A DNA stretch of 64,000 nt, from positions 37,048 to 101,047 of the forward strand of contig CAVYAN010000031.1 of assembly GCA_963766075.1 (NCBI GenBank), read 5' to 3'. Positions 1 through 64,000 of the stretch are shown here, one piece after another; within the stretch, counting starts at the first letter, position 1; each line of letters begins with the position of its first letter. The position numbers and the translations under genes were made by a program. The stretch is from an uncultured cyanobacterium. GTDB lineage: Bacteria; Cyanobacteriota; Cyanobacteriia; Leptolyngbyales; Leptolyngbyaceae. The notes under the pieces were generated by a model. It searched no databases, had not been told where the DNA came from, and saw only the letters and a program-made list of their open reading frames with translations.

Positions 1-30
1 GATTGGCACCTAGATGTTATGTGAATCAGT

Positions 31-162
31 CTATTGCCAAACGGCTATGACATCCGTACCGTCCAAGAACTCCTCGGCCACAAGGATGTCAAAACCACGA
101 TGATCCATACCCATGTGCTCAATCGGGGCGGTTTGGGGGTGCGCAGTCCCTTAGATGCCTAA
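31..162 (+). pseudogene. intI: Integron integrase C-terminal remnant (left copy)
   Basis: Translates to [43 protein letters not shown], the IntI box II and C-terminus. In-frame TGA at 22-24, no N-terminus, and the catalytic Tyr (MIYTH) is His. Confidence 0.9.
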
Positions 163-188
163 ATCCAGGCGCAGGCTCTGGGCGCAAC

Positions 189-289
189 TTGAATATGAGT
201 TCATCGAGTTCTCGAATATTGAATATGAGTTCTCGAAAATTGAATACGAGTTCTCGAATATTGAATACGGGTTCTCGAAACTTGATCTC
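189..289 (+). repeat. 21-bp tandem repeat array (TTGAATAYGRGTTCTCGAAWH), 3 full units plus partial units
   Basis: Full units at 219-239, 240-260 and 261-281; partial units at 189-218 and 282-289. Confidence 0.9.
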
Positions 290-354
290 AAGCCATCGGT
301 GGATGGCACCCCCGCAGAAATGCCTGTCCATCCCAAATTTACTCAAAATAGGAC

Positions 355-383
355 TTGCAAAGTGCGGCGCAATTCGGTATTCT
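355..383 (+). promoter_or_regulatory. Putative sigma70 promoter TTGCAA-N17-TATTCT
   Basis: -35 at 355-360, -10 at 378-383, 17-bp spacer; identical in the right copy. Confidence 0.6.
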
Positions 384-389
384 CTTGCG

Positions 390-616
390 TTAAGGTGAGT
401 GCGCTTAGGTTTAGTACTCGCCCAGACGCCCAAAGACCTCGGTCTTAAAACGCGATCGCCCAGTGCGTGGAACCACCAAGCGATCGCTAACCCCCAAGCT
501 GAGTCAGCAGCATGGCGGCTTGTTCTATTTTACAAGCCACCCTGTTTTGCAACGCATTCGGGGTGGCTGCGGTTTTTGGGTCTTCTTCCCCCACAAAAAA
601 CACAAGGAGACCCATC
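390..616 (+). ncRNA. Putative structured leader / cis-regulatory RNA (left copy)
   Basis: Hairpins at 394-422, 433-446, 452-487, alternative 514-541 vs 535-568, and SD-sequestering 577-614; stems are preserved in the right copy. Confidence 0.55.
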
Positions 617-934
617 ATGACCACTCAACCGCCGAGTGATAGAAACGATCGCCCGTCCACTCTCAACGATTCAGGCTCACGCGATCCAGAACAGCGCACG
701 GTCAATGGCGATCGCGGCTCACCCGAAGTCCGCGACTTCATTACCGACCTCACCACCCTCGGCAACGAATGGGTCAACATCACCCTCACCGGCTCCCGCC
801 CCGCCGTCCGGGCCATGGTCAACCTCCTGCACCAAGTCAACGTGATTGGGGCCAGTGAATGGAGCAAGGCCATTGCCATCAAATCTACCCCAGTAATCAT
901 CCGCGTTGCCTCTCGGGGCATGCGTACAGAATAA
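617..934 (+). CDS. Small hypothetical protein (105 aa), paralog of 61669-61896
   Basis: AAGGAG SD before ATG 617; core WVNITLTGSRPAVRAMVNLLHQVNVIGASEWS...IRVASRG is shared with the right copy. Confidence 0.75.
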   Translation: MTTQPPSDRNDRPSTLNDSGSRDPEQRTVNGDRGSPEVRDFITDLTTLGNEWVNITLTGSRPAVRAMVNLLHQVNVIGASEWSKAIAIKSTPVIIRVASRGMRTE

Positions 935-1103
935 TTCAGGGGAAGTCAGCCGCCCTGCGGTCGCGGTATTCAGGAGCCAGGGAGCGTTAAGCATTCTGGC
1001 TCCTGGCTCCTCCCCTGTCCTGCGTTACGCAACTAGGCATGGTCAAGTAATAGCATCAAGACACAGATCCCTAAAAGATATAGCTCCCTATATAGCCATC
1101 TAG

Positions 1104-1298: not shown

Positions 1299-1380
1299 TG
1301 GGCGGGGAGAGACTCGAACTCTCATACCTTTCGGTGCCGCATTTTGAGTGCGGTGCGTCTACCAATTCCGCCATCCGCCC
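1299..1380 (-). tRNA. trnL: tRNA-Leu (CAA)
   Basis: Reverse complement folds as a class II cloverleaf: GGGCGGA acceptor, CCGCA-CTCAAAA-TGCGG anticodon arm, long variable arm, GTTCGAGTC T-loop. Confidence 0.95.
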
Positions 1381-61668: not shown

Positions 61669-61896
61669 TCACCGATGGTCGGACGCCGATCCGCGTATGC
61701 CCCGTGAGGCGACGCGAATCACAATTGGGGAGTTGCGCAGGGGGACAATGGGACTCCATTCGCTGGCGGCGATGACGTTGAGGCGATGGAGCAGGTGGAT
61801 CATGGCTTCGACGGCGGGGGCTTGGCCGCTGAGGGTGATGTTGATCCAGTCGGAACTGTGGGCCGCTGGGTCGCGGCTCGGCGGGGTCATATTCAT
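61669..61896 (-). CDS. Small hypothetical protein (75 aa), paralog of 617-934
   Basis: AAGGAG SD; DWINITLSGQAPAVEAMIHLLHRLNVIAASEWS...IRVASRG. Confidence 0.75.
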   Translation of the reverse strand: MNMTPPSRDPAAHSSDWINITLSGQAPAVEAMIHLLHRLNVIAASEWSPIVPLRNSPIVIRVASRGIRGSASDHR

Positions 61897-62121
61897 GGTT
61901 GGGTCTCCTTATGTTTTTTGTGGGGAAGAAGACCCAAAAACCGCAGCCACCCCGAATGCGTTGCAAAACAGGGTGGCTTGTAAAATGAAACAAGCCGCCA
62001 TGCTGGACAGTCAGCGTGGGGGTTAGCGATCGCTTGGTGTTACAGCACTGGGCGATCGCGTTTTAAGACCGAGGTCTTTGGGCGTCTGGGTGAGTGCTAA
62101 ACCTAAGCGCACTCACCTTAA
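61897..62121 (-). ncRNA. Putative structured leader RNA (right copy)
   Basis: Near-identical to 390-616; differences fall in loops or linkers or swap G-C/A-U for G-U pairs. Confidence 0.55.
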
Positions 62122-62220
62122 CGCAAGAGAATACCGAATTGCGCCGCACTTTGCAAGTCCTATTTTGAGTAAATTTGGGGTGGACAGGCATTCCTGCGAG
62201 GTGCCATCCACCGATGGCTC

Positions 62221-62374
62221 GAGATCAAGTTTTGGGAACCCGTATTCAATTTTCGAGAACTCGTATTCAATTTTCGAGAACTCGTATTCAAGTTTGGTCA
62301 ACCCGAAATTAAGTTTTGGGAACCTGAGATCAAGTTTTGGGAACCTGAATCAAATTTTGGCAACTCAAAATCAA
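62221..62374 (-). repeat. 21-bp tandem repeat array, 7 units
   Basis: Units start at 62229, 62250, 62271, 62292, 62313, 62334 (20 nt) and 62354. Confidence 0.9.
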
Positions 62375-62400
62375 GTTGTATCTAGAGCCTACGCCTGGAT

Positions 62401-62544
62401 TTAGGCATCCAAGGGACTGCGCACACCCAAACTGCCCCGATTGAGGACGTGGGTGTAAATCATGGTGGTTTTGACATCCTTGTGACCGAGGAGTTCTTGA
62501 ACGGTGCGGATGTCGTAGGGATATCCATACCGTCCAATATTCAT
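62401..62544 (-). pseudogene. intI: Integron integrase C-terminal remnant (right copy), 47-aa mini-ORF
   Basis: [47 protein letters not shown]; catalytic Tyr retained, N-terminal domains absent. Confidence 0.9.
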
Positions 62545-62647
62545 GTATTAAGTACTACTCGAATTGATTCAGTAATAAGTCTAAAGATTTACGGAAGAAA
62601 TTGGCTCACAGTTTTGTCCGCAGGATAAAATTTAAGTTAGATTAGAG

Positions 62648-62794
62648 TTTCGGCATAACACCCCGTATAGAGGTAGATATGCCGAAATAATTCTGCATAA
62701 TGTTCTGCAGGGGGCAGTTATGCCGAAAATTTCTATATAACTCCCTAGCTGGAGGTAGATATGCAGAAAGATTCTTTATAAAGAATAGTTAGAC
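62648..62794 (+). other. Putative attI-like recombination region
   Basis: 41-bp-periodic TTCKGCATA/TATGCMGAA inverted pairs ending in GTTAGAC (GTTRRRY) at 62788-62794, on the 5' side of the intI remnant. Confidence 0.6.
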
Positions 62795-62896
62795 CGCTAG
62801 GCTTTTTATTAGTGTAGTCATATCAAGTTAACTATCGGTATTCAGGATTATTTCACCAAAAATTTTCTCTATGTTTTGATTCTGTGAGTATCAAGA

Positions 62897-64000
62897 ATGA
62901 AAAAATGTTTTCTGACGTTACTTCAATTTCTCAGTCAAACAAAAGTTGGATGCTTCAAGCTGTTTCATCGTTCTCAACGAATTATTATCACCGCATTTCT
63001 TACCACTGCGCTAGTATTTTTTTCCCAGCAGGTTCAAGCATTTAATATTTTCAATGAAGTTCATAATTGTCTCAACGGTGGCTGTGACCCTACTAAACCG
63101 GAAGTTATTCAAAGCGTTACTAATCGGGTAGAGGAAGTTAGTAAGATAATCGAGAGTGCGAATTGGGAAAAAGTCGCTGAGTACTATAACAATCCTAGTT
63201 CTGCTTACCGTGCTCTTTGGGGGGAACTTTCCAACGTTGCAGATAGAGCGCTTAACGGTGTTATTAGTCGCAATTTTGGTCATATAACTAATAAGAGGGA
63301 ATTGCGACGTGCTCTTGAAAGCCAAGGCATTGTCATCTATGGACTTGAGATAAGTCATGATGAATACTACACGGCGACAACTTATGCTGCTGCGTCTGTA
63401 GCTTCAGAAAATCCTGCTCCGCTCATTTCCTACTTCAACGACTTAGCATATCGTAGCTATAGTGAAATGTTACTAAACTTAAAGAAAGCGATTGAACGCC
63501 TTCAGGGGCAGTATGCGGCAGAACTGCAACAATTAGAAAAAACTCTCAGCGTCGAATATATTGCCACTGCTTTGGCAAGCTATGTTAGTACTGGAAAAGT
63601 CCCTGACATATCCGTCGATATAGATTTATCTACTGCCAATATCCGTTTTGGTATTTTAACTTACAGTCGTGGAGAAAGAACTCCTGCTGGGACGATTGTA
63701 ACACCAAACACACATCAGCCTTACATAATTGTTACACCACCTGGATTAAGTGTAAAAATTGCACAAACTATAGAAGCTTACACTATTCCACAAGGTCAGA
63801 TAGTATCTTTTCAAGATACTAACGATCTGGTAGCAATTTCAAAGAGTGGAACAGGAAGTGGTACAACGGAAGTTCACATTCTTTCAGGAGCTAGCAACTT
63901 TCAGCAGTTTATTCTACACACCGGAACCGCACTGCATGAAACTGGAAATACCTTCAATTTTGGAATGGCTGATTGGGACAGGGATGGTCAATCAGATCGG
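62897..64000 (+). CDS. Secreted protein with FG-GAP/VCBS-like repeat; putative first gene cassette (runs off the window)
   Basis: Open frame from ATG 62897 to the end; signal peptide ...QQVQA-F; DLVAISKSGTGSGTTEVHILSGAS...DWDRDGQSD; AT-rich, no HIP1 seen. Confidence 0.75.
   Translation, partial: MKKCFLTLLQFLSQTKVGCFKLFHRSQRIIITAFLTTALVFFSQQVQAFNIFNEVHNCLNGGCDPTKPEVIQSVTNRVEEVSKIIESANWEKVAEYYNNPSSAYRALWGELSNVADRALNGVISRNFGHITNKRELRRALESQGIVIYGLEISHDEYYTATTYAAASVASENPAPLISYFNDLAYRSYSEMLLNLKKAIERLQGQYAAELQQLEKTLSVEYIATALASYVSTGKVPDISVDIDLSTANIRFGILTYSRGERTPAGTIVTPNTHQPYIIVTPPGLSVKIAQTIEAYTIPQGQIVSFQDTNDLVAISKSGTGSGTTEVHILSGASNFQQFILHTGTALHETGNTFNFGMADWDRDGQSDR

Follow-up and report, generated by a model that had tools for sequence, protein, structure and literature searches.

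Integrons whose integrase has been lost or degraded are a described group that includes In0, CALIN and intI pseudogenes (Cury et al. 2016, PMC4889954), and the portions of that article covered here describe no conserved gene 3′ of intI. The DNA analysed here, a stretch of 64,000 nucleotides from an uncultured cyanobacterium of the Leptolyngbyaceae (GCA_963766075.1, contig CAVYAN010000031.1; C31:37048-101047, referred to as the window), likewise has truncated intI genes, and several integron platforms are found in its genome. One of them, on contig C41, has an intact integrase with divergent small open reading frames (ORFs) on its 5′ side, for a DUF6883 protein and its neighbour. Unlike the degraded integrons in the covered portions of PMC4889954, the remnants here still have the final 38-43 codons of the gene beside a conserved 3′ neighbour, and three of them have one clean deletion from the ATG to nt 848. 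The neighbour is a unit present in many copies per genome, consisting of a promoter-like site, a structured RNA leader and a gene for a small protein. The association of this unit with the 3′ side of intI is genuine and is seen again in several cyanobacterial families. Here it is proposed, with slightly better than even confidence, that the window contains two decayed integron platforms, each with a riboregulated multi-copy unit on its 3′ side, and that the linkage arose by recombinational hitch-hiking. Because the assembly has 126 contigs and a completeness of 84.9%, the copy numbers given for this genome are lower bounds.

The leader of the unit is similar to riboswitch and attenuator leaders in its conserved hairpin domain with invariant unpaired nucleotides, its hairpin with a U-run, its hairpin pairing with the Shine-Dalgarno sequence and its compensatory base changes. 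Unusually for a metabolite riboswitch, a genome may have up to at least 19 copies of it, each preceding a member of one and the same small protein family, and it lacks an Rfam match. Multi-copy cyanobacterial small RNAs such as Yfr2-5 and NsiR1 are also repeated structured RNAs that are highly similar within a genome; the leader differs from them in being the 5′ portion of an mRNA that encodes a conserved protein, and the Rfam models of this type had no match in the window at gathering scores or, by E-value, in window 1-1100 and four other loci. Type III toxin-antitoxin loci (ToxIN) have short tandem repeats, a terminator-like hairpin and a protein gene in the same order as the module described below; unlike in those loci, the repeats here are located upstream of the promoter-like site and are missing from most copies, and no ToxN-like match was obtained. 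Known kinds of element appear to be combined, namely decayed chromosomal integrons and a riboregulated small gene, while the leader and protein family and the recurrent site beside intI appear to be new. Neither the 3′ neighbour of intI nor the RNA or protein family is described in the full-text literature covered, which includes the main texts, in part, of PMC2426708 and PMC4889954.

The two copies in the window, copy A (34-934, forward strand) and copy B (62544-61669, reverse strand), have an identical order of parts in a pairwise alignment of window 1-1100 (+) with 62620-61500 (-): a 3′ tail of intI, an array of 21-bp repeats, the promoter-like site, the leader and the small ORF. This five-part order had been described in the initial annotation, together with a nearly identical non-coding middle, diverged ORFs and an integrase cut at almost the same codon with different sequence beyond it, and the alignment bears out all of these observations. 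The non-coding stretch has approximately 94% identity over 324 nt by BLAST, with an E-value between the two leaders of approximately 1e-139, far above chance. The ORFs, of 105 aa in copy A (617-934, +; subfamily A1 in the family alignments A3 and A4) and 75 aa in copy B (61669-61896, -; subfamily B), have only the C-terminal core in common, with 63% nucleotide identity. The intI tails break at nt 839 of the gene in copy A and at nt 849 in copy B, and the sequences past the breaks are unlike. The 21-bp array of copy A (183-290, +) has approximately 4-5 units with a consensus of about TTGAATAYGAGTTCTCGAAWA (TRF: 205-279, period 21, 3.6 copies, 90% matches; repeat families D1 and D2 at 183-285). 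That of copy B (62218-62377, -) has approximately 7-8 units, the distal ones being more diverged (TRF: 62220-62377, 7.6 copies, 78% matches; repeat search: 62218-62364, 6 overlapping copies spaced 21). Between the array and the promoter-like site of copy A there is a conserved spacer (291-354, +), an invariant block in the alignment of the two copies, which is found just in those genomic copies with homology extending that far left.

The unit is dispersed in the genome, as had been suggested, with 18 leader copies found both by BLAST and by the covariance model R1, and 20 small-ORF loci found by protein profile, spread over 17 contigs. The neighbours at the 20 copies are unrelated housekeeping genes, for example SurE, UPRTase, PMSR, glutamine synthetase and RuBisCO activase. 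The repeating entity is not the five-part module that had been claimed: the intI part is present in 6 of approximately 20 copies and the 21-bp array in approximately 7 (BLAST), and the left ends of homology are graded, at positions 1885, 1895, 2019, 2042, 2071, 2172, 2191, 2199, 2236, 2279 and 2295 of the C41 reference. Right ends are found 10-110 nt past the stop codon. BLAST detected no 21-bp array outside the module copies of this genome, and the array is also missing from the units seen in other genomes. Among 15 copies, the leaders have 81-97% identity, while the ORF cores of type A and type B are just 60-68% identical, and copy A is a mosaic, with a leader nearest to those of type-B copies and an ORF of subfamily A1. 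This likeness within the genome fits either concerted evolution by recombination or recent spread, as far as sequence comparison goes.

The promoter-like site of copy A (355-383, +; TTGCAA-17 nt-TATTCT) was recognised by reading the sequence as a putative sigma-70-type promoter; it scored 8 of 12 in a promoter scan, below the listing threshold, and its position coincides with the start of unit homology in subfamily A2. The site of copy B (62128-62156, -; TTGCAA at 62156-62151 and TATTCT at 62133-62128) is identical to it in the alignment, and the putative transcription start site is located just 3′ of the -10 hexamer. The leader follows at 390-616 (+) in copy A and at 61891-62127 (-) in copy B, the two having 94-95% identity. 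Window 385-625 folds at a minimum free energy of -95.1 kcal/mol (z = -5.58, 200 shuffles), and model R1 matches both copies, at C31:37516-37669 (window 469-622) with 135.2 bits and at C31:98938-99091 (window 61891-62044) with 135.3 bits. In copy A, the C-rich hairpin domain of the leader spans approximately 485-518. A terminator-like hairpin occupies 533-568, its U-run being at 573-577, and in the next hairpin (578-613) GGGUCUUCUUCC (578-589) is paired with the Shine-Dalgarno region AAGGAGACCC (604-613).

The small gene had been supposed to have a structured leader, and covariation backs the helices. Four helices with 31 pairs were compared in the 23 sequences of alignment A5, which come from at least 14 genomes (aligned by MAFFT with a structure derived from one member sequence, which favours the structure somewhat): 81.9% of the cells were paired, against 38-52% with the partners slid, 16 of the 31 pairs changed on both sides, and the cells changed on both sides numbered 48, against 18.9 in shuffles, a value reached by 0 of 500 shuffles. 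The terminator-like helix 3 has 10 pairs, with 88.1% of the cells paired and 5 pairs changed on both sides. A G+C-rich hairpin with a U-run and compensatory changes has the sequence characteristics of an intrinsic terminator or attenuator, the termination itself being predicted. The terminator hairpin and the ribosome-binding-site (RBS) hairpin recur before family members in at least 14 genomes, other genera included, and a conserved hairpin domain with a C-rich strand stands ahead of this terminator/RBS platform. No Rfam family matched the leader at the gathering score in the window, at E<=10 in window 1-1100 or at E<=1 in four loci of other genomes. An in-frame ATG at window 512 was considered as an extension of the ORF and rejected, since the frame differs in copy B and in the C41 copy and the ATG is lacking in other genomes; in those genomes, these bases belong to the 3′ strand of a stem that covaries. 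A second group of family loci in other genomes (L073-L090) has a different leader, built on ACAGTCCAATTGGACTGT-like palindrome repeats.

The small protein has 66-105 aa, with a variable N-terminus and a conserved C-terminal core of approximately 55 aa. The AlphaFold2 model of the copy B protein (mean pLDDT 83) has a strand-helix-strand arrangement. The ORF had no Pfam family at E<=1, no NCBIfam family (best E 0.053, for one member), no PHROGs family (best 0.041) and no PADLOC match; Foldseek, which had been suggested as a check, was run with the model against PDB and gave no match at E<=0.001. A structure-atlas search returned unnamed cyanobacterial clusters alone, with scores of 0.80-0.82. 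Near relatives are few, with 8 of 9 candidates in a large protein collection and 22 representative clusters when a narrow profile was used. Two long repeat proteins among the 22 matches (P0021 and P0027) were judged to be spurious low-complexity matches and left out of alignment A4, and a frameshifted form (P0008) was left out of A3. The A3 profile found no confirmed relative in collections of genome contigs and metagenome contigs, and the 105-aa protein had no tblastn match in plasmids. A complex prediction of IntI with the small protein, scored at 0.00, gave no verdict.

In other cyanobacteria, the A4 profile (20 sequences) detected family members in 141 genomes out of 401 in the class, often with at least 14 matches per genome, and model R1 found the leader in 44 of 151 genomes, many with at least 19 matches. 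The complete genome G039 has eleven copies of a unit of approximately 650 bp, mostly 80-97% alike, with one (L170) at approximately 67%. In nine aligned G039 copies the homology opens at the -35 hexamer of a clear TTGACG-17-TACAAT promoter; BLAST ends vary by approximately 25 nt on the left and 80 nt on the right, reaching at most approximately 80 nt past the stop codon. The core unit, as delimited by sequence homology, is the segment from the promoter to just past the stop codon.

Of the 401 genomes, 128 have intI at a score exceeding the curated cut-off. From approximately 240 intI matches, 90 were examined, comprising 30 with 1.5 kb flanks and the next 60 full-length ones by rank with 3 kb flanks; at least 600 nt of 3′ flank was available in 86 of the 90 loci, and at least 600 nt of 5′ flank in 71. 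Searching whole loci with the A4 profile gave 12 matches, all of them 76-535 nt beyond the intI stop on its 3′ side (5 in the orientation of intI, 7 convergent), the iterated profile gave 13 intI loci with a family member, and model R1 gave 12, including a new one (L153) with a divergent family ORF after the leader. In 800-nt flanks there were 14 matches on the 3′ side at E<=0.0014, the fifteenth being at 0.014, and the best 5′ match at 0.067. In total, 14 of the 90 loci are linked (12 strong and 2 at E of approximately 1e-3), the member being located 76-550 nt past the stop in the 3′ flank, in the orientation of intI at 7 loci and convergent at 7; by hand count, 47 of the 90 are in genomes having the family at all. 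In a quick IntI tree, used just for this purpose, the linked loci are scattered and both orientations occur inside one tight clade. The initial annotation had placed the small gene 3′ of intI, off the cassette side, and all 14 linked loci elsewhere have it on the 3′ side too. Its view of the unit as integron-linked stands in that the association recurs at these loci, and does not stand for the family as a whole: of the 29 family loci that were sampled elsewhere, 28 lack any intI within 1.5 kb, and only one has an intI fragment in that range. Several clades have intI without the family, and others the reverse. Repeats 3′ of intI were also seen elsewhere, such as short heptamer runs in two loci (L142 and L103) and approximately four tandem units of about 75 bp after the intI stop in L158 (G035:C47), in a genome without the small-ORF neighbour; repeat arrays of differing sequence may be common directly 3′ of intI in cyanobacteria.

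The intI tails of the window match PF00589 and, as had been recognised, are of integron type, the intact paralogue at C41:95203-96141 (a 321-aa open frame) scoring 464.6 bits with TIGR02249 against a cut-off of 265. The window copies are not full-length integrases, having 68.7 and 65.3 bits with the same model (positions 271-314 in copy A and 277-314 in copy B). In C41 the intact gene is followed on its 3′ side by the same array, leader and small ORF, and on its 5′ side are the divergent small ORFs. The intI-linked unit copies of the genome are six, namely this intact gene and five remnants.

The copy A remnant (34-162, +; E 1.6e-18) has the 43 last codons and the stop, with 97.7% nucleotide identity to nt 839-966 of the C41 gene, and reads MIHTH where the intact gene reads MIYTH, so that the catalytic Tyr is replaced by His. 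The same replacement is present in C8, and in the alignment copy A (C31a) and C8 also have a common Gln-to-Pro change at the break. Upstream of copy A there is an N-terminal intI fragment (positions 8-49, with one TGA; C31:36876-37001, 50-170 bp before the window), followed by a second intI piece read from the sequence. On this basis, the copy A tail belongs to an intI pseudogene, much decayed, that extends upstream of the window, and forms its 3′ end; the tail has 97.7% identity to the intact gene although the remaining pseudogene is barely recognisable.

In copy B, the intI-derived part (62401-62517) retains the catalytic Tyr and belongs to a 47-aa ORF (62401-62544, -; TIGR02249) formed by 9 new start codons and the last 38 intI codons. 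This ORF (MNIGRYGYP and the last 38 IntI residues) is also found at C17:164560-164700 and C65:49050-49194, and it was created by the deletion, its ATG being missing from the intact locus. The deletion junction is one and the same in copy B, C17a and C65, the lost segment starting with the A of the intI ATG and ending at nt 848; 5′ of the tail these copies have homology to the 275 bp upstream of the intact intI, with 82-95% identity. As judged from these junctions, there are two truncation lineages, one of copy B, C17a and C65 with the deletion and another of copy A and C8 with the Tyr lost, and the shared cut codon reflects common descent from these two lineages and not the end of an element. 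The intI tail as the end of a mobile element was accordingly rejected, the sequence beyond it in copy B being the integron's own 5′ region. Substitutions in the tails have a synonymous to non-synonymous ratio of 6:1 between C31b and C17a (pN/pS 0.05) and 10:1 between C41 and C31b; these are small numbers (7-11 substitutions), and gene conversion could also yield such an excess.

On the other side of the tail, copy B has a homologue of the intI promoter and presumed attI side (62518-62798, -), with 82.6% identity over 281 nt to C41 reference positions 767-1046. This block, of approximately 275 bp, is conserved on the 5′ side of intI in C41, C17, C31b and C65, with the common boundary ...AATAG|TT; beyond approximately reference position 770 the platforms are unlike, save C41 and C17, which have 1046 bp in common at 95%. 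Such divergence past a common boundary fits an attI insertion point. The block includes 41-bp imperfect direct repeats in which the motif TCTGCATATCTACC recurs (window 62670-62781 by TRF, period 41; C41:96190-96445), and this repeat region is conserved in the four platforms; a palindromic stretch containing AGTACT is located directly before the intI start, and it may resemble cyanobacterial LexA boxes. A direct-repeat search on the cassette side of C65 found no attC-like repeat family. The first cassette-side ORF of copy B (62897-64000, +), of more than 368 aa, is oriented away from the intI remnant and is cut by the contig end; its first 158 aa have no Pfam family at E<=1e-5.

The surroundings of the remnants include other genes. 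A tRNA-Leu gene (anticodon CAA) is located at window 1299-1380 (-), 365 nt downstream of the copy A ORF and on the opposite strand, and beyond it are genes for an M48 peptidase and then a Crp-family regulator. The ORFs closest to the copy A intI remnant encode a GNAT acetyltransferase and a CHAT-domain fragment, and on the cassette side of its decayed integron, upstream of the window, there are two paralogous ORFs of 256-277 aa (C31:32629-34434; L040 5630-7435), which at a guess from their sequences could be transposase-like. In C8, an IS66-family transposase and a fragment of a DDE_3 transposase precede the truncated tail by approximately 500 bp (C8:65173-67319; L038 7174-9320), and thus insertion sequences may have caused the C8 truncation. 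The copy on C2 (C2:11900-12350; L021 2718-3035) has the array without the intI tail and a DUF6883 ORF approximately 900 nt upstream, similar to the first ORF beside intI in C41 and C17a. The C2 copy may be a platform stripped of the entire intI.

According to the proposed mechanism, the unit would comprise a sigma-70-like promoter, a leader of approximately 230-270 nt and the gene for a strand-helix-strand protein of 66-105 aa. The leader would act in cis and keep the gene off by default, through premature termination and a blocked translation start, until a signal remodels the upstream leader domain; small ligands, RNAs and proteins, perhaps including the gene's own product, are candidates for this signal. 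Recombination would keep the unit copies of a genome alike, and homologous recombination between dispersed units would have allowed integron platforms to be duplicated and moved together with the adjacent unit. The 21-bp array is a spacer, particular to this lineage, that separates the intI stop from the unit promoter; it may be protein-binding iterons or phased, bent DNA. From sequence comparison, this co-movement of platform and unit by recombination is the most likely course. Several observations weigh against the proposal. Hitch-hiking is read solely from mosaicism and fuzzy ends, and by itself it does not explain why the position is always 3′. Homology among close intI loci ends at the stop codon and the orientation of the unit flips, and therefore repeated independent juxtaposition fits at least as well. 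The crude attC scan (RYYYAAC...GTTRRRY with a hairpin) gave 0 candidates in 5 cassette-side regions (17.4 kb), as it also did on shuffled sequence, so the label of attI side derives from position and the homology boundary. Additionally, the promoter, termination and RBS masking are predictions, the alternative (ON) fold is not supported by covariation, a wide structural alignment search with the small protein had a best Z of 4.3 to generic alpha/beta chains and was uninformative, and some unit copies could stem from co-assembled strains.

Other explanations have to be weighed with the same data. The unit could be a small non-autonomous mobile element, mobilised by a transposase or by IntI acting on secondary sites, with the 3′ flank of intI as a preferred target; this is unlikely. 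Its many copies, 81-97% alike within a genome and just approximately 70% between genera, are often at contig ends or between unrelated housekeeping genes, and both orientations occur beside closely related intI genes whose homology ends at the stop codon, all of which would suit an element that moves. However, its ends are not sharp, with graded left ends in this genome, and in G039 the variable ends and the start at the -35 hexamer look like selection-limited homology. The unit also has no transposase and no PHROGs or PADLOC family, the attC scan was blank, and no terminal inverted repeats or target duplications were noticed in the alignments, in which no dedicated search for them was made. 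A toxin-antitoxin-like addiction module stabilising the integron region, with the small protein as toxin or the array as a type III RNA antitoxin, would account for a tandem array upstream of a terminator-like hairpin and small gene, for a predicted masked RBS as in many toxin mRNAs and for multiple copies beside mobile DNA. It is nevertheless highly improbable, given that the array stands upstream of the promoter-like site in approximately 7 of 20 copies and is absent from the units of other genomes, that the protein has no PADLOC, Pfam or NCBIfam match and, on reading its sequence, no hydrophobic segment like those of type I toxins, and that no conserved partner gene adjoins. A lone pair from a single old duplication next to intI, without wider meaning, would have been in keeping with two copies 61 kb apart on one contig. 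The at least 18 leader copies and the 20 ORF loci on 17 contigs, the family in 141 of 401 genomes and the linkage to intI elsewhere refute it, leaving next to no likelihood.

It is also conceivable, if doubtful, that integron platforms have the leader and small gene as a third functional part, in which the small protein, or a transcript reading out of or into intI, regulates IntI expression or recombination, with the retained tails modulating intact IntI in trans as functional mini-ORFs. In its favour, the member found at 14 of 90 intI loci elsewhere is always within approximately 550 nt of the stop and never 5′, and in family-bearing genomes 13 of 47 intI loci (the 13 from the iterated profile, the 47 by hand count) are linked. 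Both intI copies fetched from G034 have a closely similar neighbour, as do 2 of 3 from G273, the third of which (L048) has just 155 nt of 3′ flank. The tails add to this, since that of copy B has a start codon, the catalytic Tyr and a synonymous bias (6:1 with C17a and 10:1 with C41), and that of copy A is 97.7% like the intact gene in an otherwise decayed pseudogene. On the other hand, the bias comes from 7-11 substitutions and gene conversion from intact alleles could produce it, most copies are away from intI (14 of 20 here and 28 of 29 sampled elsewhere), 75 of 90 intI loci have no member, and the orientation of the unit is not fixed. Some clades have intI and little or no family (17 of 39 genomes against 0 of 39 in f5, 13 of 23 against 0 of 23 in f4, and 14 of 39 against 1 of 39 in f18), and in many genomes the family is present without intI (in f9, 35 of 39 genomes with the family against 15 of 39 with intI). 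An unrecognised 3′ partner that controls IntI or recombination, or that offers portable homology for moving platforms, with the 47-aa tails perhaps acting in trans, is a tentative possibility of low probability beside the recombinational hitch-hiking preferred here.

The leader and small-protein family is found in approximately one third of the sampled cyanobacterial genomes and is absent from the family libraries searched, and the leader is a candidate for a new class of cis-regulatory RNA with many natural variants. Studies of integrons have centred on the 5′ side, that is, intI, attI, Pc and the cassettes, and a recurrent 3′ neighbour is apparently undescribed. In this genome, one intact intI and at least five truncated platforms offer a natural case in which to examine if one integrase serves several attI sites. 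If the neighbour influences IntI or aids the movement of platforms, it would be a new component of a much-studied gene-capture system, and either role could be tested in cultured, genetically tractable cyanobacteria.

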